UHGV virus genome: UHGV-0318018
Direction: 5' to 3' (one strand)
From: a virus
Length of the DNA stretch: 11,661 nt
The notes beneath the pieces are model-generated. The model was given only the letters and a program-made list of their open reading frames with translations, was not told where the DNA came from and searched no databases. This document shows positions 1-11,661 of the stretch, piece after piece. The position numbers and the translations under genes were made by a program. How positions within the stretch are numbered: the stretch's first letter is position 1; every line of letters starts with the position of its first letter.

Positions 1-23
1 TTGTTGCTGATAATGGCGAACAT

Positions 24-692
24 ATGGACTTCATTGCCGCAAATCAATGCCGGAGTCAGCCGGATGACGCAAAGCGGATAGAGTGTTATGACAAAGCTGT
101 AACTCCAACACGCACCAAAACATTAGAAAAGTTTGAAAGCAGGGATCAATGCAGGGATGAGGCGTGGGAGAAAAAAAGGCTGTCTTGCTATGATCGTTTT
201 TTTTCTCCAACATTTACTAATGCCAAGGTTGACAATGTACATAAAGACAGTAGGGATGTTGGGGACTGGAAAGTTGATATAAAAACATCTCCAATCGATG
301 ACTCTAAAAATGTTGTTATCTTTGTGAATGGTAATGATTCTTTTAGGTCCCCGTTTGGAGACAACATAACTCCAACTCTTTATATTGCGTGTAGGGAAAA
401 TAAAACAGAGCTGTTTATAGATTGGGATGTATACTTGGGGCTGAGTGAAACTACGATGATTCATCGAATAGATAAACAAAAAGCCATAAACAGAAAGTGG
501 TCTATTTCAACAAATACAAAGGCCGTCTTTTATGATGGTAATGTGATTGATTTTATAAGAAAGTTACAAAGTGGTAATCAGTTATTTGCTCAGATAACCC
601 CATATAGTGAAAGTCCGGTGAGCACAACCTTTAATCTCAAAGGTCTTTCTGAAGTTATTAAACCATTACAAGAATCATGTAACTGGAAATAG
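24..692 (+). CDS. Hypothetical protein in an AT-rich accessory gene; possibly 5'-truncated by the window edge
   Basis: 222-codon ORF, stop TAG at 690-692. The frame is open from position 3, so the true start may lie upstream. Composition is visibly more AT-rich than the phage tail genes. Contains a duplicated motif C-x9-R-[IL]-x-C-Y-D (CRSQPDDAKRIECYD and CRDEAWEKKRLSCYD). No family recognised by eye. Confidence 0.5.
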   Translation: MDFIAANQCRSQPDDAKRIECYDKAVTPTRTKTLEKFESRDQCRDEAWEKKRLSCYDRFFSPTFTNAKVDNVHKDSRDVGDWKVDIKTSPIDDSKNVVIFVNGNDSFRSPFGDNITPTLYIACRENKTELFIDWDVYLGLSETTMIHRIDKQKAINRKWSISTNTKAVFYDGNVIDFIRKLQSGNQLFAQITPYSESPVSTTFNLKGLSEVIKPLQESCNWK

Positions 693-719
693 CTATTGGT
701 GTTGTTTTCCGAATAATAA

Positions 720-752
720 CCCCGCGATTGTATATAGCGGGGTTATTATTTT
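720..752. terminator. Bidirectional rho-independent terminator between convergent genes
   Basis: Stem CCCCGC (720-725) pairs with GCGGGG (737-742) around an 11-nt loop, followed by TTATTATTTT (743-752) on + and a T-rich run on the - strand. Sits between the stop of the 24-692 ORF and the stop of the 770-1066 ORF. Confidence 0.5.
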
Positions 753-769
753 GGCCTGATTGTCAGGTA

Positions 770-1066
770 TCAGCCATATTTGCGGGCGAAATCTTCATCT
801 GAGGTGCATAGATAGATAAAAAATTCAATAAAAGCCACGATTGCCGGGATAAATGTCCAGCAAAAAATAAGGTAAAGAAATCCCTGCCCCACTTTACCTA
901 AATAAAATTTGTGTGCACCAAGACCACCTAAAAAGAAAGCCAGTAGTGCGGCTGTCATTCTGCTTTTTGAACTTGCTGTTCTTTGAGGTGCTCCACAATT
1001 GGGGCAGGATGTGGCATCTTTATGTATTTCCTTGCCGCATCCGCGGCAAAATACCATTTCACTCAT
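770..1066 (-). CDS. Small membrane protein with N-terminal zinc-ribbon (CxxC...CxxC) and TM2-like hydrophobic C-terminal domain
   Basis: 98-codon ORF. N-terminus CRGCG...CPNCG is a C4 zinc ribbon, followed by two hydrophobic segments (LLAFFLGGLGAHKFYLG and LYLIFCWTFIPAIVAFIEFFIYL). SD-like AAGGA sits 7 nt upstream of the ATG at 1066. Confidence 0.6.
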   Translation of the reverse strand: MSEMVFCRGCGKEIHKDATSCPNCGAPQRTASSKSRMTAALLAFFLGGLGAHKFYLGKVGQGFLYLIFCWTFIPAIVAFIEFFIYLCTSDEDFARKYG

Positions 1067-1170
1067 AAAGAGTTCCTTTCAAATTTAAACAAGCGTTAAG
1101 CCCACCACTCTTACTGGCGGGCCTCAATTTAAATTTGGGTGCCACTTCGACCTTACCCTGGCAACCGATT

Positions 1171-1192
1171 GACGGGGGATTGCTCCCCCGTC
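1171..1192. other. Perfect 9-bp stem hairpin (GACGGGGGA-TTGC-TCCCCCGTC) in the hok 3' flank
   Basis: Read directly from the sequence. Followed on + by GCGGTTTCC. Could be a transcript 3' structure of the hok mRNA or a terminator; function not established. Confidence 0.3.
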
Positions 1193-1201
1193 GCGGTTTC
1201 C

Positions 1202-1342
1202 TTACTGCTTACACTGTAAGAACGCCGCAAACTCCGCTCCCCAGAAGCTCATCCGTATTTCGCACAGCGAACCGTGCAGCATCCAGATGATGAGGATTGC
1301 CGTCACGCAGAACGTGATGGCCGTAAGCGATTTTTGCGACAT
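1202..1342 (-). CDS. hok: Hok/Gef-family type I toxin (small membrane-depolarising peptide)
   Basis: Hand translation of the - strand gives ATG(1342-1340) MSQKSLTAITFCVTAILIIWMLHGSLCEIRMSFWGAEFAAFLQCKQ stop TAA(1204-1202), 46 aa. It has an N-terminal TM helix followed by the SLCEIR motif and an E-x-AAF C-terminal region typical of Hok/HokA-E peptides. AAGGAG SD lies 8 nt upstream. It is absent from the ORF track because it is under 60 aa. Confidence 0.6.
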   Translation of the reverse strand: MSQKSLTAITFCVTAILIIWMLHGSLCEIRMSFWGAEFAAFLQCKQ

Positions 1343-1472
1343 AGCACTTGCTCCTTTTCCGGAGAGGCGCTAACCTTTCACTTGTCAAGGTAATGCGGTT
1401 AGGGCCTCGGTTAAACAGAAATGTTTTCCGGGGCCTTTCCACATCTGGCCTTCGGGTATTCCCTCCGACCAT
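1209..1472 (-). CDS. mok-like overlapping reading frame (modulation of killing) covering the hok gene in another frame
   Basis: 87-codon ORF that starts 130 nt upstream of the hok ATG and ends 7 nt before the hok stop, in a different frame. This geometry matches the mok/hok arrangement of plasmid R1. The sequence itself is not conserved enough to confirm. Confidence 0.3.
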   Translation of the reverse strand: MVGGNTRRPDVERPRKTFLFNRGPNRITLTSERLAPLRKRSKCYVAKIAYGHHVLRDGNPHHLDAARFAVRNTDELLGSGVCGVLTV

Positions 1473-1532
1473 CAGCCGAAAGGCACCCGCGCGTAATCTA
1501 TCGCTTTTTTGTTACTCCGGCAATTCTGTTAG

Positions 1533-1793
1533 TTAATTCTGAGATAAAGGCAAACTCATCTGATTGTTTCCCCTGTGTGAAGCTGGCAGCTCATGCCACG
1601 GGATACCTTCTGAAGAGTGAACGCCGGAGGCGTGTTTTGATGTGAATTTATGGAAAGCTTCCAGTGTTGAGAAGCATACGCCGCATTCCAGGTTGTTACA
1701 CTGGTAATACTTTTGCCGCACGGTGTTTGAATCATTTTCCGGACGACTGGTGCGGATACGGGCAGATGCGCCACAAAGCGGACAACGGAACAT
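1533..1793 (-). CDS. ogr: Ogr/Delta-family zinc-finger late transcription activator
   Basis: 86 aa beginning MFRCPLCG...YYQCNNLECGVCF, with the four Cys of the Ogr zinc finger at positions 4, 7, 32 and 37. Strong SD AAGGGAGG sits 5 nt upstream of the ATG at 1793. Lies immediately downstream of gpD as in P2. Confidence 0.85.
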   Translation of the reverse strand: MFRCPLCGASARIRTSRPENDSNTVRQKYYQCNNLECGVCFSTLEAFHKFTSKHASGVHSSEGIPWHELPASHRGNNQMSLPLSQN

Positions 1794-1835
1794 AGCGACC
1801 TCCCTTAACGTGGTGCTGCTGCTATTCTAAGTTGC

Positions 1836-2945
1836 TCACTCTGTTTCTGCTATCCATTCCGGGATTTTTGCCTCAAGCTCAAGCTGCGTGGTAAAGCCGC
1901 TGTTATCGATGGTGTGCTCGGCTTTTGCAATAATCCAGTCCTGATTATCAATCTCGCTTTTAAATCCTGTTACCGTGCCATGCATTTCGGGGTAGAGTTC
2001 TGCACGACCACGTGCCAGCGTGATGGAGAATGATGCGGCTCCGCGTTGTAGCTGCTGCCACTTTGCCGCCGCTGCGCGTCTTGCTGCCTGCTCGTTCTGA
2101 TAAGTCTTGCGTAACACAAACACATTGCCTTCCGCGCCTTCCATATAATCACCTTCACGGCTGCTGCTTTTCTCCTTTTTGGGTTTTGGCGGTTTGCGGC
2201 GTTTCACGCTGACTTTTTTCTTTTTCCCGTAATTAAGATCAAGCCAGTAAGCGCGTACCCCCGTATACGCCTCGCGGTCAGCAATGCGGAACTGATGGCG
2301 ATCGCCGCTACTGCGTGTGATGGCGAACGATGGCAACGGCTGGCCCTGTGCGTTCACGCCACCGCCGGGCATGATGAATAACAGATTACCGCTTTTTACC
2401 GTGGTGATTGCGCCCAGCATTTCCGCCATGCGCGTAAGGAAGGACATGTCACTTTCTTCGGTCTGGTCGGCGTGGTCGATTTCGATATCCATCAGCATTT
2501 CGCTGATTTGCGGTTTCAGACCGTACCGATGAGCGATGGCGGATACCACACGCTCAACGGTCACATCATGCCAGGACACCTCACGTTTAACGTTAAATTC
2601 ATCCCGAAAATCTGCGCTTCTGGCTGAAACAGTCAGCCTGTCCGGCGGTCCTTCGTGAGCGATTTCATCAACAATGTAAGTGCCTTTTTCTGTCAGCGGT
2701 TCTCCTTTCCAGCCAATGAGAACCGTCAGGCGCGCGCCCCGTGGCGGTAGCTGCAACTGACCATCTGCATCATCCAGCGTGATGGTGAGCTGGTCTGCTT
2801 CAAATCCCCGGTTGTCGGTCAGTGACAGGCTCATCAGGCGCTCTGCCACGCCTGACAGCGTTTTACCCTCCGCGAGAATATCAAAATCCGGCATTTTCAC
2901 GGGGTCTGTGCTCTGACTGAGCAATTGCATGGTGGTGTCGGTCAT
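1836..2945 (-). CDS. P2 gpD-like tail protein (late control gene D family)
   Basis: Long ORF 1836-2966. The preferred start is the ATG at 2945 (MTDTTMQLL...), preceded by GGGAGGG at 5-nt spacing. Size (about 369 aa) and position next to ogr match P2 gpD. Contains an unusual Lys/Arg-rich patch GKKKKVSVKRRKPPKPKKEK. Confidence 0.85.
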   Translation of the reverse strand: MTDTTMQLLSQSTDPVKMPDFDILAEGKTLSGVAERLMSLSLTDNRGFEADQLTITLDDADGQLQLPPRGARLTVLIGWKGEPLTEKGTYIVDEIAHEGPPDRLTVSARSADFRDEFNVKREVSWHDVTVERVVSAIAHRYGLKPQISEMLMDIEIDHADQTEESDMSFLTRMAEMLGAITTVKSGNLLFIMPGGGVNAQGQPLPSFAITRSSGDRHQFRIADREAYTGVRAYWLDLNYGKKKKVSVKRRKPPKPKKEKSSSREGDYMEGAEGNVFVLRKTYQNEQAARRAAAAKWQQLQRGAASFSITLARGRAELYPEMHGTVTGFKSEIDNQDWIIAKAEHTIDNSGFTTQLELEAKIPEWIAETE

Positions 2946-3101
2946 CTTTCCCTCCCTGTGCGGCATGGTCGCATGTGCGTGCGGAGGGGGTTACTGCTTT
3001 TTGTTGTCGCCGTGGCGGGAGAACGGCGCAGGGGTGAGATTACGCGCGTGGTGGGTGATGATTGTTGCCGAATCATTTAACGGATACAAGGGGCTGAAGC
3101 T
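2946..3101. promoter_or_regulatory. Divergent intergenic region expected to carry promoters for D-ogr (leftward) and the FI-U operon (rightward)
   Basis: 156-bp gap between divergent start codons, each with a good SD. No exact Ogr box (TGT-N12-ACA) was found by eye, so promoter positions are not assigned. Confidence 0.35.
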
Positions 3102-4286
3102 ATGAGTGAAACTCGTTTTCATGGTGCCCGTGTCACGGAAAGTACCGACCTGGTAACAGCGGTTAATGATGTTGATTCCAGCGTTATCGGTATCGTGGCA
3201 ACGGCGGATGATGCGGATGCGGAGCTGTTCCCGCTGAACAAGCCCACACTGCTGACCCGCGTCAATGACGTGCTGGGAAAATGCGGTACTACGGGGACGC
3301 TTTATCGTGCGCTTAAGGCTATCGCAGACCAGGTGAGCACAAAGGTGATCGTCGTTCGCGTGGCTGAACACAAAAAAGAAGGCGGTAAGACGCAGGATCA
3401 ACTGGTTATCGGTGGTTCTGAGGATGACGGCAGCTATACGGGGATGTATGCGCTGCTTGTTGCAGAGCAGGATGAAAGCATCGGATACCGTCCGCGCATT
3501 CTGGCTGCGCCGGAGCTGGACACGGAGGCGGTGACAAAATCTCTGTGCGTGATTGCAGGTAAACTGCGCGCGTTTGTGTATGCCTCATGTCATGGCTGTG
3601 ACACGATGGCCGAGGCAATTACCTACCGCCAGAAATTCAACGAACGTGAGGTGATGCTCTTATGGCCGGACTTTATCGCCTACAACCCGAAAAGTGGCAA
3701 AAACGAAACGTTCCCCGCGCCTGCCTATGCGTGCGGCCTTCGTGCGTACATTGACCATGAGCAGGGCTGGCACAAATCGCTGTCCAACGTTCCGGTTAAA
3801 AATGTGCTGGGGATGTCCAGGCATGTGTTCTGGTCGTTGCAGGCCGAAGACAGTGATGCCAACAGCCTCAACAACAAAGAAATCACGACCATTATTCGTC
3901 GCAACGGGTTCCGCTTCTGGGGCAACCGCACACCGGAAACGAACGCCTACATCTTTGAGGTGTATACCCGAACCGCACAGGTGCTGGCTGATTCAATTGC
4001 GGAAGCGCAGTTTGAAACCATCGACAGTCCACTGACGCCTGCGAATGTGAAGGATGTTATCAGTGCCATCAGGGCAAAACTGGATTCACTGGTTACTGCC
4101 GGGAAACTGATTGGGGCGTCGTGCTGGTATGACGTGGTGGATAACGGCACCACGAATTTACGTCAGGGGCGCGTGCGTATTCGCTACAAATATACGCCTG
4201 TTCCCCCGCTGGAAGACATGGAGCTTTACCAGTCGTTTACTGATGAATTCTTTGGTCCCGCATTTGCGGTGCTGGGAGGTGCCTGA
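3102..4286 (+). CDS. Contractile tail sheath protein (P2 gpFI family)
   Basis: 394 aa. Conserved sheath blocks visible, e.g. DADAE.FPLNKP, KLRAF.Y, WPDF.A, EQGWHK.LSNV, IRR.GFRFWGNRT, NYTRTAQV, YTPVPPLE. AAGGGG SD upstream of the ATG. Confidence 0.9.
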   Translation: MSETRFHGARVTESTDLVTAVNDVDSSVIGIVATADDADAELFPLNKPTLLTRVNDVLGKCGTTGTLYRALKAIADQVSTKVIVVRVAEHKKEGGKTQDQLVIGGSEDDGSYTGMYALLVAEQDESIGYRPRILAAPELDTEAVTKSLCVIAGKLRAFVYASCHGCDTMAEAITYRQKFNEREVMLLWPDFIAYNPKSGKNETFPAPAYACGLRAYIDHEQGWHKSLSNVPVKNVLGMSRHVFWSLQAEDSDANSLNNKEITTIIRRNGFRFWGNRTPETNAYIFEVYTRTAQVLADSIAEAQFETIDSPLTPANVKDVISAIRAKLDSLVTAGKLIGASCWYDVVDNGTTNLRQGRVRIRYKYTPVPPLEDMELYQSFTDEFFGPAFAVLGGA

Positions 4287-4798
4287 TGGCTGTACCAAAA
4301 CATCTTCGCTTTTTTACGCTGTTTGTGGATGGTGAAAACGAAGTGGGTAAGGTGACGTCCGTCACTCTACCTAAGCTGACGCGCAAAACCGACAGCTACC
4401 GGGGTGGTGGCATGATGGGTGCGGTAAGTATTGATCTCGGTCTGGACGACTCCGCGCTTGATGCGAGCTTTGTCATGGGGGGCGCAGTTCGTGAGCTGTT
4501 CCTTAAGTATGGCGGCACGATTGACGGCACGCTGCTGCGTTTTGCGGGTGAATACTACACCGATGCAGAAAGCGACCTGTATGAAGTCGAAATGCGCGGA
4601 CGTGTGACGGAAATTGATATGGGGGAAGCCAAACAGGGCGAAGCCACATCACACAATTACGCCATTAAAAACACCTACTACAAGCTGAGTGTTAACGATC
4701 GCCCGTTGTGGGAGATTGACCTGCTGAACTTCATTTACCGGAAGGACGGCAAGGACATTGTGCCCGATCGCATCCGTTCCGCGCTCGGGCTTGGCTGA
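4286..4798 (+). CDS. Tail tube protein (P2 gpFII family)
   Basis: 170 aa. The start overlaps the FI stop by 1 nt (TGATG), with GGGAGG SD. Motifs VTLPKLTRK..YRG.GM and LRFAG.Y are typical of FII tube proteins. Confidence 0.9.
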   Translation: MAVPKHLRFFTLFVDGENEVGKVTSVTLPKLTRKTDSYRGGGMMGAVSIDLGLDDSALDASFVMGGAVRELFLKYGGTIDGTLLRFAGEYYTDAESDLYEVEMRGRVTEIDMGEAKQGEATSHNYAIKNTYYKLSVNDRPLWEIDLLNFIYRKDGKDIVPDRIRSALGLG

Positions 4799-4852
4799 TA
4801 AGTAATATGCAGGCGGCGCAGTGCGTCGCCTCTGACTGAAAGGAGTTTCCTG

Positions 4853-5218
4853 ATGAAAGAGACGAAAAACATCGATACCGAAAACACGGTAGTTACTGAC
4901 ACTGTGAAAGAAACCAGTGAGCGTGGCGTAAAACTTACCCAACCAATTGAGCGAGGCGGCGAAAAAATCACGTATGTGGAGATCACCGGGGCTATTGAGC
5001 AGGCTGGATCTCTGCGAGATTTGTCGCTGTCTGATGTGCTGAATCTGAAAGCGGAATCCATGTTTACGCTGCTGTCACGCGTGACATCACCGCGACTGGA
5101 TGAAGTGACGATCAAAAAAATGGCATCCCGTGACTTTATTCAGTTATGTGTGGTTGCCGTAAATTTTTTGAGCGGTGCGGACTCTGGCGGGAAGAACGAA
5201 CAGGCGACGGAAGCCTGA
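4853..5218 (+). CDS. Tail assembly chaperone gpE (zero-frame product)
   Basis: 121-codon ORF with AAAGGAG SD 7 nt upstream. It sits between the tube and tape measure genes and carries a slippery TTTTTTG near its 3' end, as in P2 E. Confidence 0.7.
   Translation: MKETKNIDTENTVVTDTVKETSERGVKLTQPIERGGEKITYVEITGAIEQAGSLRDLSLSDVLNLKAESMFTLLSRVTSPRLDEVTIKKMASRDFIQLCVVAVNFLSGADSGGKNEQATEA
5164..5170 (+). other. Programmed -1 ribosomal frameshift slippery heptamer TTTTTTG (E to E')
   Basis: T TTT TTG in the E frame (codons NFL). The -1 frame continues open to the TGA at 5380-5382. The same heptamer mediates the E/E' frameshift in P2. Confidence 0.6.
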
Positions 5219-5382
5219 TCACGGTTGTGTGCTTTGAGCACATAGAAGACTTTGTGGCGGATATTGCCGCCATTTTTAACTGGTCGCCCGCCGAAATCTT
5301 CATGATGACGCCCGGCGAAGTGGTTAGCTGGCGTGAGCGGGCGGCACTTCGCAGCGGGAATGCAGACAATGAAGACTCTTGA
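5170..5382 (+). CDS. E' extension; the fusion product E+E' is made by a -1 frameshift at 5164-5170
   Basis: The -1 frame is open from the slippery site to 5382 (ERCGLWREE...FVADIAAIFNWSPAEIF...LRSGNADNEDS). This is the G/GT-like chaperone arrangement upstream of the tape measure gene. Confidence 0.6.
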   Translation, partial: ERCGLWREERTGDGSLITVVCFEHIEDFVADIAAIFNWSPAEIFMMTPGEVVSWRERAALRSGNADNEDS

Positions 5383-8176
5383 TATCCGGGTCGCTTTCAG
5401 CGCCGTTGACAGGCTGACCCGGCCTGCCGAAAACGCCCGCCGCCTGATGGGGCAGTTTGGTGACTCCATCCAGCGAACGCAGGGGGCGATCAAAAATCTC
5501 GAGCGTCAGGCGCGATCATTTGAGCGCGCCCGCGACGCTGTCAGTAAAGCGGATGCGGGTATCGTGAAAGCACGACGCCAGCTTAACGCCCTTAATCAGT
5601 TACAACGCACGGGTACAGTGCTCAGCGAAAAACAACAAAAGCTGATGCAGCAGTTAAGCACCCGGCTTGAACGCCTGAATGAATCGCGCACACGGGAAAT
5701 TCAAAAAATGCGGGAGCTTGGCGGAGAGCTGAAACGCCACGGCATTTCCCTGACAGGCAGCGATAACACCATCCAGCAGGCCATCAGACGCACCGAACAG
5801 TACAACAACCAGCTTGAACGCGAACGGCAGGCGCTTGCACGTGTAACGCGGGCGCGTGAGCGGTATTCGCGCGCGCAGGAAACAGCGGGAAAACTGAAAA
5901 CAGGTGGTGCGCTGGCAACTGGTGCGGCAGCGGCGGGCGGCTATGCTGCCGGGCGTTTTTTGCAGCCTGCGATCGGGTTCGGCAAAGAGATGTCCCGCGT
6001 TCAGGCACTGACGCGAATCGACAAAAACAGCCCGCAGTTTAAGGCGCTGCGTGAGCAGGCGTTAAAACTTGGCTCTGAAACACAGTTTACTGCGAGTGAT
6101 GCCGCCAGTGGACAGAGCTTTCTGGCAATGGCTGGTTTTACTCCGCAGGCCATTCAGGCTGCACTTCCCGGCGTGCTGAGCATGGCAACGGCTGGCGGTA
6201 TGGATCTCGGCGAGACGGCGGATATTGGCTCAAATATCCTGACGCAGTTCGGCCTTTCTGCTGACCAGATGGACCGGGTCGGTGACACGCTCACCGCAGC
6301 GTTTACCCGTACCAACACTGACCTTCGCGCACTTGGCGAAACCATGAAATATGCAGGTCCGGTGGCGGGCAAGCTGGGAATATCGCTGGAGCAGGCCGCA
6401 GCGATGGCGGGCGTACTGGCGAATATGGGTATCAGGGGAAGTGATGCCGGGACGGCAATGCGTGCCAGCCTGGCTCGTCTGGCATCACCGCCAAAGGCGG
6501 CGGCAGAAGCTCTGAAAGAGCTGGGCGTGTCCGTCTCTGATGCGAATGGCAAAATGCGCCCGATGGAAGATCTGCTGGCTGACCTTTATAAAGCCACCCG
6601 CAAATACGGGGAAGTTGACCGGGTATCGTTCTTTAAGGACATTGCCGGGGGAGAGGCTTTCACATCGTTTATGGCACTCGTTGATGCGGCGGGTGACGGT
6701 TCCTTACCCAAACTGAGAAAAGAACTTGAGGGCGCACGCGGTGAGGCTGAACGCACGGCAAAGGTGATGGCCGACAACCTTGATGGCGACCTGAAAAATC
6801 TGGACAGCGCATGGGAAGGTCTGCGTATTCGCATTGCAGATCTGATTGACGGTCCGCTGCGTTCTGTCACGCAGTGGCTCACGCGGGTGGTCTCAAAGGT
6901 GACGGCGCTGGCGCAGGCCCATCCGGCACTGACGCGCCAGCTACTGATAGCAGGCGGTGCGCTGCTGGCAATGACTGCAACGGTCGGCTCGTTGTCGCTG
7001 GTTATTGGGGTGCTTTACGGGAAGCTGGCCACCCTGCGTCTTGGTTTCGACATTCTTACCCGGTCAATGAATGTCGTCAGGGTGTTGCCTGCGCTGTGGG
7101 GAATGGTGACGGGTTCCGTTTCTTTACTGGGAGGCGCCATCGGGGCGTTGTTCAGTCCGGTTGGTCTTATCGTGGCTGCGCTTGCCGGAGCTGCCGTTCT
7201 TATCTGGAAATACTGGGATCCCATCAGGGCATTTTTTGCCGGGGTGTTCAGCGGGATTATGGAAAGGCTGACCCCGTTGCGCGAAACCTTTGAACGGTTT
7301 GGTCCTGTTTTTGACGCAATCGGAAGCGGGATCAGCCAGGTGTTTAACTGGTTTAAATCGCTGCTGTCACCGATGGAATCCAGCAAGGAAACGCTGGATA
7401 AATGTACCAGTGCTGGCGAGATATTCGGTAACGTTCTTGGTGGCGCGTTACAACTTGTTCTGACGCCTGCAAAAATGCTGCTGGATACGCTGGCGTGGAT
7501 ACTTGAAAAACTTGGCGTCCTTCCGGATGAAGCGGAAAGGGCGCGCAAGAAAATCGAAGACGCACAGCGTGCGGCCATTCTTCAGGACAAGGTTGCCTTG
7601 CTTCAGGGGGACCTGGCGAAAATCAATCCGCCGAAGCCTGTGGAAAATGGCAATGGCACCGGAGGTGATAAACCCAAAGACAACAAACCGCTCACAGACA
7701 GCAATACCGGGACGCTACGCAGACTCAGCAAAATTGCTGATAACACAGGTAAGCTGGTTGATGAGACGAAAAAACGCATTGGCCCCGGCGATATTGTCTT
7801 TAAGAACCTGCCCCGCGCACTTGCTGTTCGTGGGGAGTGGCAGGAGCGGAAGATTGCGCAGGTCAGTAAGTCTGCCCCCGCAATGAATATCACACCCGTG
7901 GTTCCGGCTCCGCTGCCTCCGGCGCTGGTCCCTGTTGTTGCGACCAGCTCCCGCCCGGTGGCAGAGGCCATACGATCGCCAGTGGCATCAGTTCCTGCAA
8001 CTTCCCGTAACCGGGAACCTGTTGCCTCCGGATTTGGCGGTGAAATTCATGTTCATCTGCATAACGTTGTTACGCAGAATCCCCGCGAACTGGCGAAACT
8101 GGTCGGTGAAATGGTCAGGGCAGAAATGGAACGGCGCGCCCGTGCCGGGCGTGGCAGTTTTTACGATAAAGATTGA
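5369..8176 (+). CDS. Tail tape measure protein (P2 gpT family)
   Basis: Long ORF open from the GTG at 5333; in-frame ATGs at 5360 and 5369. 5369 is preferred because GGGAA lies 8 nt upstream. Shows a coiled-coil-rich N-terminus, a TMP core (DLRALGETMKYAGPVAGKLGISLEQAAAMAGVLANMGIRGSDAGTAMRASLARL) and Gly/Ala-rich hydrophobic segments. Confidence 0.85.
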   Translation: MKTLDIRVAFSAVDRLTRPAENARRLMGQFGDSIQRTQGAIKNLERQARSFERARDAVSKADAGIVKARRQLNALNQLQRTGTVLSEKQQKLMQQLSTRLERLNESRTREIQKMRELGGELKRHGISLTGSDNTIQQAIRRTEQYNNQLERERQALARVTRARERYSRAQETAGKLKTGGALATGAAAAGGYAAGRFLQPAIGFGKEMSRVQALTRIDKNSPQFKALREQALKLGSETQFTASDAASGQSFLAMAGFTPQAIQAALPGVLSMATAGGMDLGETADIGSNILTQFGLSADQMDRVGDTLTAAFTRTNTDLRALGETMKYAGPVAGKLGISLEQAAAMAGVLANMGIRGSDAGTAMRASLARLASPPKAAAEALKELGVSVSDANGKMRPMEDLLADLYKATRKYGEVDRVSFFKDIAGGEAFTSFMALVDAAGDGSLPKLRKELEGARGEAERTAKVMADNLDGDLKNLDSAWEGLRIRIADLIDGPLRSVTQWLTRVVSKVTALAQAHPALTRQLLIAGGALLAMTATVGSLSLVIGVLYGKLATLRLGFDILTRSMNVVRVLPALWGMVTGSVSLLGGAIGALFSPVGLIVAALAGAAVLIWKYWDPIRAFFAGVFSGIMERLTPLRETFERFGPVFDAIGSGISQVFNWFKSLLSPMESSKETLDKCTSAGEIFGNVLGGALQLVLTPAKMLLDTLAWILEKLGVLPDEAERARKKIEDAQRAAILQDKVALLQGDLAKINPPKPVENGNGTGGDKPKDNKPLTDSNTGTLRRLSKIADNTGKLVDETKKRIGPGDIVFKNLPRALAVRGEWQERKIAQVSKSAPAMNITPVVPAPLPPALVPVVATSSRPVAEAIRSPVASVPATSRNREPVASGFGGEIHVHLHNVVTQNPRELAKLVGEMVRAEMERRARAGRGSFYDKD

Positions 8177-8188
8177 GGAGTCATGGCC

Positions 8189-8677
8189 ATGATGATGATC
8201 TACGGCATGTTTGTTTTTGAGCTGCGCACGCTGCCGCATCAGCAGTTACAGCAAAACAAAAGCTGGCGGCATGTGAAAAATGAACGCGTTAACCGTTCAG
8301 CAAGCTGGCAGTATATCGGTGCAGGTGATGATCGCATCGTGCTTTCTGGTGTGCTTTATCCTGAAATTACAGGTGGCGAAGTGTCGCTGTCGCTGCTGAC
8401 CACGCAGGCGTATACAGGACACCCCTGGCCTCTGATTGATGGCGTCGGGCAGATTTACGGCATGTATGTCCTGACCGACACGAATACGACCCGTTCCGAG
8501 TTTGATTGCTACGGCAAGGCGAAAAAGATAGAGTTTTCACTGACACTTGAACGCTGTGATGAAGATTTGCGGGAGCGACTACAATCCTCATCGTTCAGCG
8601 ATATGCTGTCCGGCCTCAAAGATAAGGTGACGTCATCCCTTAACAGCGCGGCCAGCTCCGTTAAAGGGCTGTTTTGA
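8189..8677 (+). CDS. Tail protein gpU (P2 U family)
   Basis: ORF from 8183 (MAMMMIYGMFVFELRTLPHQQLQQNKSWRH...). The ATG at 8189 is favoured because GAGGAG at 8175-8180 then has 8-nt spacing. Motifs LQQ..SWRH and LSG.LYPE.TGG are shared with P2 gpU. Confidence 0.85.
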   Translation: MMMIYGMFVFELRTLPHQQLQQNKSWRHVKNERVNRSASWQYIGAGDDRIVLSGVLYPEITGGEVSLSLLTTQAYTGHPWPLIDGVGQIYGMYVLTDTNTTRSEFDCYGKAKKIEFSLTLERCDEDLRERLQSSSFSDMLSGLKDKVTSSLNSAASSVKGLF

Positions 8678-8684
8678 TTAACGC

Positions 8685-8714
8685 AAAACCGCTAATGGTC
8701 AGATTAGCGGTTTT
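8685..8714. terminator. Bidirectional terminator hairpin between U and the invertase gene
   Basis: AAAACCGCTAAT (8685-8696) pairs with ATTAGCGGTTTT (8703-8714) around a 6-nt loop, with T-runs on both strands. The invertase stop codon lies within the right arm. Confidence 0.5.
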
Positions 8715-9303
8715 CATTTTCCTGAGTCTGCCTGGTTGTTTCTTCAGCCTGTATATCGCCTACAGGGTGATAACGATAAATCGTCGATATGCCGATGTCG
8801 TAAATGATCGCCAGTTGTTTCCTGTCATGACCGTTTTTAATCAGCCTCGCTATTTGCTCGTGTTGTTCTTTTGTCAACTTCGGGCGACGTCCGCCAATGC
8901 GTCCTTGTGCGCGTGCTGCTGCCAGCCCGGCCAGTGTACGCTCTACAATTAATTCACGTTCCATTTCGGCTAAAGCCCCCATGACGTGAAAAAAGAAACG
9001 CCCCATGGGTGTTGATGTGTCAATGCTGTCCGTCAGACTACGGAAATTAACACCTTTTTCCCGCAATTCCTCAATAAGCGTGATCAGGTGTTTCATACTT
9101 CTGCCCAGTCTGTCCAGCTTCCAGACAACCAGCGTATCTCCTTCTGATAGCGTTCTGAGCAGTTTTTTCAATCCCGGTCTGGCTGATTTCGTTCCGCTGA
9201 TTTTATCTTCAAAAATCAGTTCACATCCTGCGCAGTTCAGTGCATTGCGTTGTAAATCCGTGTTTTGGTCATTTGTTGACACACGAATATAGCCAATTTG
9301 CAT
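8704..9303 (-). CDS. Serine DNA invertase, Pin/Gin/Cin/Hin family
   Basis: The true start is the ATG at 9303 (MQIGYIRVSTNDQNTDLQRNAL...), with AAAGAGGA SD. Resolvase catalytic N-terminus with active-site Ser in GYIRVSTNDQ, plus the motifs LVVWKLDRLGRS, GRFFFHVMGALAEMERELIVERTLAGLAAARAQGRIGGRRP and a C-terminal HTH. The longer ORF-track start at 9432 is an upstream artefact. Confidence 0.9.
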   Translation of the reverse strand: MQIGYIRVSTNDQNTDLQRNALNCAGCELIFEDKISGTKSARPGLKKLLRTLSEGDTLVVWKLDRLGRSMKHLITLIEELREKGVNFRSLTDSIDTSTPMGRFFFHVMGALAEMERELIVERTLAGLAAARAQGRIGGRRPKLTKEQHEQIARLIKNGHDRKQLAIIYDIGISTIYRYHPVGDIQAEETTRQTQENENR

Positions 9304-9357
9304 AAAAAACATCCTCTTTGTTTCGTGAAAAATACATAGTTGGTATAGGTAGGGATA

Positions 9358-9383
9358 AAGACGAAAACGTTGGTTTAGGAGAA
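9358..9383. promoter_or_regulatory. Candidate 26-bp invertase crossover site (cix/gix-like), overlapping the invertase promoter region
   Basis: AAGACGAAAACG-TT-GGTTTAGGAGAA. The right half, read on the other strand, is TTCTCCTAAACC, resembling Hin-family half-sites (TT.TC..AAACC). The left half is degenerate. It lies 55-80 bp upstream of the invertase ATG, where gixR/cixL-type sites sit. Not verified. Confidence 0.25.
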
Positions 9384-9521
9384 GGCTCGGCGCTACCCGT
9401 TGGTGTGCCTGTTCCGTGGCCCACCGCCACACCGCCAGCAGGCTGGTTAAAGTGCGACGGGCGCGCCTTTACAAAAGAACAATATCCTGTTCTGGCCAGA
9501 GTCTACCCGACCCTCCGTCTT
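9366..9521 (+). pseudogene. Tail-fibre collar fragment (NVGLGEGSALPVGVPVPWPTATPPAGWLKCDGRAFTKEQYPVLARVYPTLRL), truncated at a recombination junction
   Basis: Conserved tail-fibre collar motif G.P.PWP..PAGWL.C.G..F....YP.LA..YP. Homology ends abruptly at 9521/9522, where inverted repeat IR-A begins. There is no start codon and no N-terminal shaft. Confidence 0.45.
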
Positions 9522-9631
9522 ATATCAGCACGGCACCTGAAATCAGCTGGCCGGAAGCGCCACTGGCACTTGCCAGCTGAACGGTATCACGCCGCCCTCA
9601 CGATATAGTTAAACGCGATATTGCGGGGGCG
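9522..9631. repeat. IR-A left arm (110 bp), inverted copy of 10103-10212
   Basis: Reverse complement of 10103-10212 with 4 mismatches by hand alignment. Contains the fibre 3' end (RPRNIAFNYIVRAA stop) on the - strand and a Tfa 3' end on the + strand. Confidence 0.85.
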
Positions 9632-10148
9632 GGTTATGTTAAAGAATGCTCCGTTTAATTCGGCTTTTGCGCGACTGTTTGTTCCACCCAGAATTGCGTA
9701 CCACTTGCCTGTTGGTGTGCCTGTTCCGTGGCCCACCGCCACACCGCCAGCAGGCTGGTTACAGTGCAACGGAGCTACGTTCACCAAAGGACAATATCCT
9801 GTTCTGGCCAGAGTCTACCCGACCCTCCGTCTTCCCGATTTGCGCGGTGAGTTTATCCGTGGATGGGACGGTGGTCGCAAGGTTGATACCGGGCGTGCGC
9901 TACTTTCATTTCAGGAAGGGACTATCGTATCCGGTTTTGATGATAATGATACCGGAGATATCAGTTCGCTCGGCTCTACACAATATGGATTTGGTGACGC
10001 TTTAACCTCTAATCAACTGGGGGTCATAAATGACAAAAAGTGGATATTTGATGCATCCTCTAAAGGTGCACAAAGATATGACTGGTGGGCTTATGTATCA
10101 GCTCGCCCCCGCAATATCGCATTTAACTATATCGTGAGGGCGGCGTGA
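9621..10148 (+). CDS. Tail-fibre C-terminal cassette 1 (collar plus receptor-binding tip), lacking the N-terminal shaft
   Basis: Open frame containing LPVGVPVPWPTATPPAGWLQCNGATFTKGQYPVLARVYPTLRLPDLRGEFIRGWDGGRKVDTGRA..., ending RPRNIAFNYIVRAA. Collar motifs match Mu S / P1 S / P2 H-type fibres. Only a TTG or an internal ATG (9636) is available as a start, so it is probably silent unless fused to a constant region. Confidence 0.55.
   Translation: MRGRVMLKNAPFNSAFARLFVPPRIAYHLPVGVPVPWPTATPPAGWLQCNGATFTKGQYPVLARVYPTLRLPDLRGEFIRGWDGGRKVDTGRALLSFQEGTIVSGFDDNDTGDISSLGSTQYGFGDALTSNQLGVINDKKWIFDASSKGAQRYDWWAYVSARPRNIAFNYIVRAA
9756..9870. repeat. IR-B left arm (115 bp, collar-coding), inverted copy of 11098-11212
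   Basis: Reverse complement of 11098-11212 with 2 mismatches. Encodes WLQCNGATFTK.QYPVLARVYPTLRLPDLRGEFIRGWD in both cassettes. Confidence 0.85.
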
Positions 10149-10212
10149 TACCGTTCAGCCGGCAAGCGCCAGTGGCGCTTCCGGCCAGCTGATTTCAGGT
10201 GCCTTGCTGATA
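10103..10212. repeat. IR-A right arm (110 bp)
   Basis: See IR-A left arm. Spans the convergent 3' ends of cassette 1 (+) and the tail-fibre assembly gene (-). Confidence 0.85.
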
Positions 10213-10769
10213 TTCAGTGCGTTCAGCTCGTCGATATAATCCAGCACGGCGTTCAGTTTTGCCGTTTCTTCTGGTGTCAGACTGCGACCAGCACGCAGTT
10301 TGAGGTTGATAAGATCGACGGACGCCATCGCCTGTTTCACCCGTTGCTGGCGTTGCTGTCTGGCAACCTCCAGTTCTGCGGCTCGCTGCCGTTCAGTATC
10401 GGTTACCCACGCCTCACCGTTCCAGGTATCCCATGGCGTGGCTGGCTGTTTTGTGGTGGTGTCCGCCGGGTAATCACCCGGTTGGGTAATCAGAACGGGG
10501 TTACCGTTCTCCGTGCTGTATACCGTCTCGCCGCGGTGATCAGGCACATGCTCCCACCCGTTCAGCGTGGCAGTCCGGCAAACCACGTAACCCGAAATTG
10601 CCTCCGGCGGTGCATCGGCGCACGAATGTGCCGGAGTACCCACCCCAAGGGCGAGATACTCCACAGAGGATGAGGTGTATTCCCGGGTTTCCTCGTCATA
10701 GTGATATACAGTGATATCGCCCGCTACAGTGGCGATACCGTTTTCATCCAGAACTGCAGTGTTACTCAT
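10155..10769 (-). CDS. Tail fibre assembly protein (Tfa / P2 gpG / Mu U-like chaperone)
   Basis: 204 aa. The ATG at 10769-10767 overlaps the stop of cassette 2 (TAATG), with GAGGG SD. The C-terminal half (TDTERQRAAELEVARQQRQ...PEISWPEAP) has the acidic/coiled-coil and WPE features typical of Tfa chaperones. Confidence 0.8.
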   Translation of the reverse strand: MSNTAVLDENGIATVAGDITVYHYDEETREYTSSSVEYLALGVGTPAHSCADAPPEAISGYVVCRTATLNGWEHVPDHRGETVYSTENGNPVLITQPGDYPADTTTKQPATPWDTWNGEAWVTDTERQRAAELEVARQQRQQRVKQAMASVDLINLKLRAGRSLTPEETAKLNAVLDYIDELNALNISKAPEISWPEAPLALAG

Positions 10770-11220
10770 TAAACTGCCCTCACAATGTAATTAAGTGCAA
10801 TGCTACGGGGTCTGACAGTGATACCCTTCGCATACCCGCTTCTGATAGAGGTCAGAATAGTAGCCTGCATACCATTGTCTGACATTGCCATGACAGGATC
10901 GCTGAATGTTGTCCCGTCCGGCATTTTAAAGCTGCCCTCACGAAGGTCTGTAATGGAATCTTCATTGTTGAATCCCATGCCGACTATCCCCGAGGTTCCC
11001 GTAGTGTCCTGGTTATAATAATCCAGCATTGCTGTTCTTAACAGCGTTGCCCCTTGTGCGGACAGCAACTTACGTCCTGTATCAACTTTGCGCCCGTCGT
11101 CCCATCCACGGATAAACTCACCGCGTAAATCGGGAAGACGGAGGGTCGGGTAGACTCTGGCCAGAACAGGATATTGTTCTTTGGTGAACGTAGCTCCGTT
11201 GCACTGTAACCATGCAACAT
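10769..11220 (-). CDS. Tail-fibre C-terminal cassette 2 (collar plus distinct tip), start-less, translationally coupled to the downstream Tfa
   Basis: Hand translation of the - strand gives one continuous frame: WLQCNGATFTKEQYPVLARVYPTLRLPDLRGEFIRGWDDGRKVDTGRKLLSAQGATLLRTAMLDYYNQD...ITVRPRSIALNYIVRAV stop. It is open back to an in-frame stop at 11245-11243. The ORF-track TTG start at 11068 is internal, and there is no ATG. Confidence 0.55.
11098..11212. repeat. IR-B right arm (115 bp)
   Basis: See IR-B left arm. Confidence 0.85.
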
Positions 11221-11486
11221 TTATTCGTACAGCTTTGCAGGATTATTACGGTTACGATCTGAATACTAATGTCAAAGTAGGTATCGCTTTTGCTACTGCT
11301 GATTCTGTTATAACCGTTGGAAACCCAGCTAATCCTAAAGCAGGAAATAATAGCGATTATGTTCCTGCATCAGCAGATAACTCTATAACGGGTATTCAAA
11401 GGACAGCGGAGGATAATTTTACCGGGGCATGGATATCAATGCGCCCCCGCAATGTTGCGTTTAATTACATCGTAAGGGCCGCATAA
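11211..11486 (+). CDS. Tail-fibre tip cassette 3 (collar-less), start-less
   Basis: Frame reads HATFIRTALQDYYGYDLNTNVKVGIAFATADSVITVGNPANPKAGNNSDYVPASADNSITGIQRTAEDNFTGAWISMRPRNVAFNYIVRAA stop. It aligns with the post-collar part of cassette 2 (ATLLRTAMLDYYNQD...) and shares the C-terminal RPRN.AFNYIVRAA end. There is no in-frame ATG; the ORF-track N-terminus MVNVAPLHCN is the antisense of the collar. Confidence 0.45.
   Translation, partial: HATFIRTALQDYYGYDLNTNVKVGIAFATADSVITVGNPANPKAGNNSDYVPASADNSITGIQRTAEDNFTGAWISMRPRNVAFNYIVRAA
11251..11368. repeat. IR-C left arm (118 bp, perfect), inverted copy of 11544-11661
   Basis: Exact reverse-complement identity over 118 bp, verified base by base. 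The inner end carries a 29-bp near-palindrome GCAGGAAATAATAGCGATTATGTTCCTGC (11340-11368). Confidence 0.9.
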
Positions 11487-11573
11487 AAACGTTGGTTTGG
11501 GGGAAGGCTCTGCATTGCCTGTTGGTGTGCCTGTTCCGTGGCCGCAGGAACATAATCGCTATTATTTCCTGCT
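11476..11573 (+). pseudogene. Truncated collar-start fragment (GPHKNVGLGEGSALPVGVPVPWP) fused at 11543/11544 to inverted cassette sequence
   Basis: Third direct copy of the CTGTTGGTGTGCCTGTTCCGTGGCC collar start. Homology to the other copies ends at 11543, and the frame then runs through the antisense of cassette 3 to a TAG. Confidence 0.4.
11480..11505. promoter_or_regulatory. Second candidate cix/gix-like site, directly after the cassette 3 stop codon
   Basis: CGCATAAAAACG-TT-GGTTTGGGGGAA. The half-site read on the other strand is TTCCCCCAAACC. Same orientation as the 9358-9383 candidate, and followed by the same collar-start sequence. Confidence 0.2.
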
Positions 11574-11661
11574 TTAGGATTAGCTGGGTTTCCAACGGTT
11601 ATAACAGAATCAGCAGTAGCAAAAGCGATACCTACTTTGACATTAGTATTCAGATCGTAAC
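11544..11661. repeat. IR-C right arm (at least 118 bp; truncated by the window end)
   Basis: Exact reverse complement of 11251-11368. On the - strand it encodes the same tip segment (...DLNTNVKVGIAFATADSVITVGNPANPKAGNNSDYVPA), entering from beyond the window. Confidence 0.9.

Follow-up and report, generated by a model that had tools for sequence, protein, structure and literature searches.

In Mu (G segment, Gin), P1 (C segment, Cin) and e14 (P segment, Pin), a serine invertase adjoins the segment that it inverts, and inversion swaps the C-terminus of the tail fibre and thus the host range. The Min region of p15B, associated with the names of Sandmeier, Iida and Arber, reportedly combines a Din-family invertase with six sites and a larger set of cassettes that carry a repeated conserved module, and occurs as many isomers. 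In E. coli, the P2-like prophage of EPEC E2348/69 was described as carrying a "shufflon-like" tail-fibre locus with three repeats, four variants and three C-termini (Goldberg et al. 2014, PMC4272514). The inversions at this locus span about 1.8 and 2.2 kb (PMC4272514).

In this study, we analysed a stretch of 11,661 nt from the virus genome UHGV-0318018, hereafter called the window, and in particular a pair of inverted repeats, IR-A, that lies in its tail-fibre region. We show that the window is the tail module and the invertible tail-fibre region of a P2-like E. coli prophage, and that IR-A consists of two copies of the back-to-back 3′ ends of a fibre cassette and of a tail fibre assembly gene (tfa) within a described E. 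coli prophage inversion switch. As far as the sequence allows us to judge, the most likely origin of the pair, with a probability slightly better than even, is an assembly chimera of mixed inversion states or of two related loci.

The tail-fibre locus and its layout in related prophages

The window carries ogr and D on the minus strand and the sheath, tube, E, tape measure and U genes on the plus strand. After U come the gene of a 199-aa serine invertase, on the minus strand, then tail-fibre C-terminal cassettes that start with a Collar module, and one Caudo_TAP gene (Table 1). The tail genes, which occupy the 9.5 kb adjoining the cassette region, are intact. The exact invertase protein is widespread among Enterobacteriaceae, and clustering at 90% groups it with proteins that bear the names e14 DNA-invertase and E2348/69 predicted invertase.

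The order of these genes differs from that of P2. The sheath-to-U block (1533-8677) is flanked by D/ogr and by the fibre and baseplate genes, both of which read in the opposite direction, and the invertase and cassettes sit after U in the window as well as in the relatives L001-L003. As L001-L003 have conserved this order, it belongs to the family and does not result from a rearrangement of the window. Between a TM2-domain gene and ogr, there is an ORF of 46 aa (1202-1342, minus strand) for which a weak match to the Hok/Gef toxin family (PF01848) was obtained in the identical region of the contig L004. An Rfam scan revealed no Sok-like RNA near this ORF, and tRNA and Rfam scans of the whole window revealed no RNA genes.

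In such a locus, the Pin/Hin-type invertase recombines 26-bp sites placed just upstream of the repeated collar module. The constant part of the fibre, encoded on the minus strand past the right end of the window, is thereby joined to a C-terminal cassette, for which there are three alternatives, A, B and C. Cassettes A and B flank the single tfa, and A, tfa and B flip together as one block.

The relatives found among complete E. coli genomes display the normal layout of this switch. The invertase is followed by s1, collar A and cassette A, all pointing rightwards, and then by tfa, cassette B with its collar, s2, cassette C with its collar, s3 and the constant fibre gene, all pointing leftwards; the window stops before it reaches the fibre gene and the baseplate genes on the right. 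This three-site layout, with one A/tfa/B block and one C unit, was found in L001, L003 and L010-L012. Three sites are present in each three-cassette locus, and two in L002, which has two cassettes. In L003, two overlapping inversions of ~1.6 and 2.1 kb are possible. Among the relatives, comparison of the isomer L010 with L011 and L012 showed that the inversions end at the 26-bp sites, and that natural isomers swap the collar-side half of each site at the AA core and keep the flank-side half where it is.

In the window, a pattern search identified two 26-bp sites of the Hin/Gin/Cin/Pin type, of the form TTCYCCYAAACC-AA-CGTTTT..., against 0.01 expected by chance. These are the only canonical sites of the window, s1 and s2, and they are direct repeats of each other; in the relatives, the inverted partner site lies within the constant fibre part, a region past the right end of the window. 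Cassettes of each of the three types are present together with one complete tfa, but in a broken arrangement with two sites only. Cassettes A1 (9705-10148) and B (10769-11212) lack the sites that precede them in every relative, s1 opens into a frameshifted stub, and s2 opens into a stop after 30 codons. As written, the window offers no cassette that could be fused in frame with the fibre gene.

The preliminary description of this locus proposed that cassette-plus-chaperone units had been duplicated and partly deleted because the first cassette has no co-directional chaperone. This proposal is not supported by the relatives. In each of the related loci that we examined, tfa converges with cassette A and runs in the direction of cassette B, and there is a single tfa end per locus in all seven relatives that cover the junction (L001-L003 and L010-L013). 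As one shared tfa is the normal architecture, the missing chaperone describes the family and not a deletion in the window. In L011 (3445-5958) and L012 (3445-6258), where an A-type cassette is fused to the fibre gene, the single tfa points toward the fibre gene and does not lie downstream of this gene. The three cassettes share a C-terminal motif, RPR(N/S)(I/V)A(F/L)NYIVRA(A/V). Given this common motif, one Tfa may serve all three of them.

Table 1. Features of the invertase and cassette region, with positions in the window.
Feature	Position	Strand	Evidence
Serine DNA invertase, Pin/Hin/Gin/Cin type, 199 aa	8704..9303	-	Pfam Resolvase PF00239 1.5e-51, HTH_7 PF02796 1.4e-12
Crossover site s1, TTCTCCTAAACC-AA-CGTTTTCGTCTT	9358..9383	-	adjoins invertase; same position in all relatives
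Tail-collar module, truncated at collar position 158 (counted from 9364)	9384..9521	+	Pfam Collar, profile positions 1-34 of 57 only; window = L004 up to 9521
IR-A left arm	9522..9631	.	repeat search
tfa fragment, last 19 codons + stop (...LALAS), tfa half of left arm	9522..9580	+	ORF 9416..9580; 100% identical to tfa end of strain DA33135
"A3-type" fibre cassette fragment, last ~38 codons + stop; fibre half of left arm 9587-9631	9587..9704	-	ORF 9587..9787; 100% to L010 8033-8150, 98.9% to L003
Cassette A1, collar from position 30 + distal domain, no crossover site ahead	9705..10148	+	Pfam Collar; 98% identical to L001/L002 6794 onward
IR-A right arm, convergent 3′ ends of cassette A1 and tfa	10104..10213	.	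within independent contigs L006 and L007, 100% identical to window; junction also in relatives
tfa, tail fibre assembly protein, 204 aa, sole complete copy in window	10155..10769	-	Pfam Caudo_TAP 8.2e-27; exact protein on contigs L006 and L007
Cassette B, collar cut at position 81, without its crossover site	10769..11212	-	translation; Pfam Collar profile positions 15-57; homology to relatives ends at 11212
Cassette C distal module without collar; last codons + stop (to 11486) inside s2	11213..11479	+	ORF 11181..11486
Crossover site s2, TTCCCCCAAACC-AA-CGTTTTTATGCG	11480..11505	-	orientation same as s1
Collar start (positions 21-58), then blunt break	11506..11543	+	last 29 nt = first 29 nt of 9705-9733
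Cassette C interior, opposite orientation	11544..11661	-	perfect inverted copy of 11251-11368; 100% to L003 8511-8628 and L010 7431-7548

The two arms of IR-A and the four joins

The repeat search returned two arms of 110 nt that are 96% complementary, with four mismatches, and 472 nt apart, in agreement with the 110 bp and ~96% obtained earlier by hand. The limits of the pair had been placed at 9522 and 10212; the left one is exact and the right one is one base off, at 10213. The similarity of the arms is homology and not chance, since the window contains two copies of a 32-nt core from the tfa end where 0 would be expected at random. The ORF ends confirm that each arm carries a fibre terminus on one strand and a Tfa terminus on the other. 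In the left arm, the plus-strand ORF 9416..9580 terminates in ...APEISWPEAPLALAS and the minus-strand ORF 9587..9787 in ...RPRNIAFNYIVRAA; in the right arm, the plus-strand ORF 9621..10148 terminates in ...NYIVRAA and tfa, on the minus strand, in ...PEISWPEAPLALAG, each followed by a stop.

A GC-rich hairpin, predicted in both alleles (10157-10190 and 9545-9578), lies within the last ~12 codons of tfa, directly past the stop of the convergent cassette. It has a 7-bp GC core stem and ~12-16 pairs in predicted folds, and 86-nt folds that include it range from -30 to -41 kcal/mol (z -2.4 to -3.8). A bidirectional terminator in the arms was considered and rejected: the GC hairpin is strong but there is no T tract, and a consensus scan made no call.

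The right arm is the native, conserved junction of cassette A and tfa, inside the block where collar A and cassette A converge with tfa, cassette B and collar B. The whole of 9705-11212, with A1, tfa and B, matches L001 at 98%, and the contigs L006 and L007 agree with its core (9841-11125) at 100%. Contigs of the sequencing runs SRR11412838 and SRR28073334 are 100% identical to parts of the window. The best protein hits to the ORF of cassette A1 all begin at the collar; the N-terminal extension across 9704/9705 lies outside every one of them.

The collar of cassette B (11085-11212) is a hybrid, with positions 81-118 of a type otherwise found on A cassettes and positions from 159 onward of the B type. 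This hybrid was initially considered as a fifth anomaly and was dropped, as it is 100% identical in several complete genomes and is thus a natural variant. Its identity across genomes also indicates a natural exchange of segments between collars, by way of 40 nt that nearly all of them share without change.

The left arm is part of a longer homologous patch of 183 nt (9522-9704) that corresponds, with 100% identity, to the reverse complement of positions 8033-8215 of DA33135. This allele is also 100% identical in at least 11 other complete genomes, i.e. at least 12 listed genomes with DA33135, and is 98.9% identical to L003. The Caudo_TAP reading frame is incomplete there, as only the last 19 codons of tfa are present and they are out of frame with the collar fragment. 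The preliminary description was right on this out-of-frame join at 9521/9522 (9318 mod 3 = 0 for the collar frame, 9416 mod 3 = 2 for that of the tfa fragment), and its view of the left region as a chimeric remnant also stands: the region is non-coding, with a collar fragment and the end of tfa converging with the last codons of a cassette.

The patch is an inverted cassette/tfa junction allele of a second, related prophage type, set between two collar copies. Because other genomes carry this allele as an intact junction at 100% identity, the arms differ by 4% as two prophage alleles do, and not through divergence since a duplication. The orientation of the patch, with tfa rightwards and A leftwards, is that of the A/tfa/B block relative to the invertase in the flipped isomers L011 and L012. 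The left arm itself is absent from all relatives.

The patch is bounded by two of four joins that make the region after the invertase a mosaic in comparison with its relatives. These joins, at 9521/9522, 9704/9705, 11212/11213 and 11543/11544, lie within 2.1 kb. From position 1 to 9521, the window has a single mismatch with the draft genome contig L004 (99.99% identity). Past this point, L004 continues into a normal collar and cassette B, of which 135 of 136 bases match the reverse complement of window 10999-11134, and it stops 136 nt beyond 9521; neither 9521/9522 nor 9704/9705 is present in it. All four joins are of an inverted "fold-back" kind, each skipping 175-392 nt. At none of them is a single base common to both parental sequences, and the collar repeat is found on one side of every join (at its positions 158, 30, 81 and 58).

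The right end of the window is affected in the same region. The piece 11213-11543, made of the distal part of cassette C, s2 and the start of a collar, recurs with 100% identity in many E. coli genomes and invariably as one 331-nt piece; it matches DA33135 at 100% and has the orientation opposite to that of L003. Its last 29 nt (11515-11543) match 9705-9733 exactly. In DA33135, cassette C, s2, collar A and cassette A follow each other in the same direction, a natural adjacency which suggests that the pieces 11213-11543 and 9705 onward are in the wrong order in the window. Beyond 11543, the sequence, again 100% identical to DA33135, turns back on itself: 11251-11368 and 11544-11661 form an inverted repeat of 118 nt with 100% identity and a 175-nt spacer, in which lie the terminal part of cassette C, s2 and the initial 58 nt of a collar. 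The right arm of this repeat reaches the last base of the window, and the perfect repeat looks like a contig-end fold-back.

All four joins are absent from 5,426 complete E. coli genomes. Exact-pattern scans of contig collections were also negative for all four joins in viral contigs and for the first three in genome and/or metagenome contigs (9521/9522 in viral, genome and metagenome contigs; 9704/9705 in viral and metagenome contigs), but these negatives are weak on their own and the window's own record may be masked in such collections. The ORF that crosses 9704/9705 is absent among 5.8 billion proteins. Exact look-ups of four of the ORFs that cross the first three joins, alternative start codons included, returned no record anywhere, and a query spanning the first two joins found no match among plasmids. 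Finally, contigs that encode identical tape-measure and sheath proteins all end at or before the collar.

Three mechanisms for the joins were tried and rejected. The first is action of the invertase at secondary sites, as no base is shared at any join and no half-site is left there. Crossover by a serine recombinase requires a common 2-bp core and, with no shared base at the joins, a serine invertase cannot have made them. The second is template switching at microhomology, for which only 6-bp inverted motifs were found, a few bases away from two of the joins, and none at the joins. The third is the end-to-end gluing of de Bruijn unitigs, where the sole exact overlap is the 29-nt match of 11515-11543 with 9705-9733 described above. 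The remaining piece ends have no consistent placement at repeat or SNP boundaries.

Origin of IR-A

From the anatomy of the region, the identity of its alleles and the absence of its joins elsewhere, we infer that IR-A is probably artefactual. We favour an assembly chimera because the anomalies alternate between two prophage alleles, are private to the window, destroy coding and end in a perfect fold-back, and because they start where short-read assemblies of the same phage break. The joins around the patch, together with the two further downstream, point to a chimeric contig at least as strongly as to evolution. A culture or a metagenome would hold all four isomers, often together with two related loci, a mixture that would confuse assemblers. 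The 183-nt piece, the similar joins and the fold-back would then come from the assembly of a sample with several inversion states and two loci.

Several points weigh against this reading. First, assemblers based on de Bruijn graphs cannot make joins without shared k-mers, and an artefact of short reads would thus require chimeric molecules or a long-read or consensus assembler. Second, silent prophage cassettes are under no selection in a lysogen, so real damage could accumulate. Finally, the hybrid collar of cassette B, which had seemed to add one more anomaly, proved to be natural.

According to the main alternative, the sequence is correct and the locus was scrambled in vivo, recently and in this lineage alone, with IR-A as a non-functional by-product. 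We consider this possible but unlikely. The scrambling could have followed from one complex template-switching event or from a few illegitimate recombinations that copied inverted pieces from a second resident prophage. It is consistent with the source of the inserted pieces, which all come from homologous cassette regions and not from random genome sites, with the collar repeat at each join, as expected of a repeat-rich and inversion-prone region, with the frequency of several such loci in E. coli genomes (median of 2-4 places per genome), and with the lack of selection on silent cassettes in a lysogen. However, it needs four blunt joins without shared bases in 2.1 kb. To our knowledge, E. 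coli has no efficient pathway for blunt end joining, and template switching normally leaves microhomology. Moreover, the flanks are 99.99-100% identical to relatives that do not have these joins, none of the 5,426 complete genomes contains them, and the perfect fold-back at the very end of the window resembles a contig-end artefact.

A more specific version, that the correct sequence records a single in vivo event with multiple template switches, in which inverted patches were copied from the cassettes of a second resident prophage, seems to us improbable on the sequence at hand. If it were true, the event would have produced new inverted repeats, IR-A among them, at which homologous recombination could flip cassettes with no need for the invertase. 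Inversion loci with several cassettes would in this way have a means of gaining or reshuffling modules.

The preliminary description had considered IR-A as a scar of earlier rearrangements. In its explicit form, two cassette-plus-chaperone units were present, one was mostly deleted and the left arm has diverged by 4% since then. This model, a subset of the real-scrambling alternative, has little probability. The left piece is oriented as in the flipped isomers L011 and L012, and two deletions could in principle shrink a second block to a stub. Against this, no relative has two blocks, the seven loci have one tfa end each and the single shared tfa is the norm of the family. The stub is not decayed, since at least 12 of the complete genomes listed carry a living allele that matches it at 100%, and the closest relative, with one mismatch in 9,521 nt, does not have it. 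In addition, the two further joins and the right-hand fold-back are left unexplained. With the patch intact elsewhere and missing from the closest relative, the idea of an old scar was not sustained.

The remaining alternative, that IR-A is a working switch whose arms invert 9632-10103, i.e. cassette A1, through the invertase or homologous recombination, is close to refuted: inverted repeats of 110 bp at 96% identity are long enough for occasional RecA-dependent inversion, but neither arm contains a crossover-like site (with up to three, then up to four mismatches allowed), A1 has no site or constant region to join and its flipping makes no new reading frame, the left arm is missing in all relatives, and natural isomers break at the 26-bp sites only. 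As there is no crossover site in either arm, 9632-10103 is not a designed invertible unit, and a functional role for IR-A is very unlikely.

The extra repeat adds no function and matters little for biology. Its value is rather methodological, since invertible, repeat-rich phage loci are where different inversion states and related prophages get mixed within one contig. Repeats or "remnants" observed in a single assembly at such loci should therefore not be taken as evolutionary history without read support.

Comparison with known inversion systems

Among known systems, the locus of E2348/69 shares with the window the host species, the type of prophage and an invertase of the same 90% protein cluster, and the relatives of the window show the same plan of three homologous sites, two overlapping inversions and three C-termini for one fibre gene. 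The window differs from it in having only two sites, in the same orientation, and cassettes without sites or collars. The inverted 183-nt fragment and the terminal fold-back are absent from the described system and from every relative.

With Mu, P1 and e14, the window has in common 26-bp sites with an AAACC half-site and a 2-bp core, at the boundary between the constant and variable parts of the fibre. Mu and P1 have two sites and, behind each of their two cassettes, a separate assembly gene (S-U and S′-U′), whereas the family of the window has one shared tfa, co-directional with B and convergent with A, and no chaperone of its own for each cassette. The Min region of p15B, as it is described, is similar in having one invertase, more than two sites and several fibre cassettes. 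The Rci shufflons of R64 and other IncI plasmids resemble the locus in that multiple inversion chooses among the C-termini of an adhesin-like protein. They differ in using a tyrosine recombinase, 19-bp sfx sites and a pilus tip gene, whereas the enzyme of the window family is a serine resolvase/invertase.

Altogether, IR-A brings nothing new in kind, as an artefact or a dead fragment, and the system that underlies it is already known: a Gin/Cin/Pin/Min-like switch, in the three-site variant published for a P2-like prophage.
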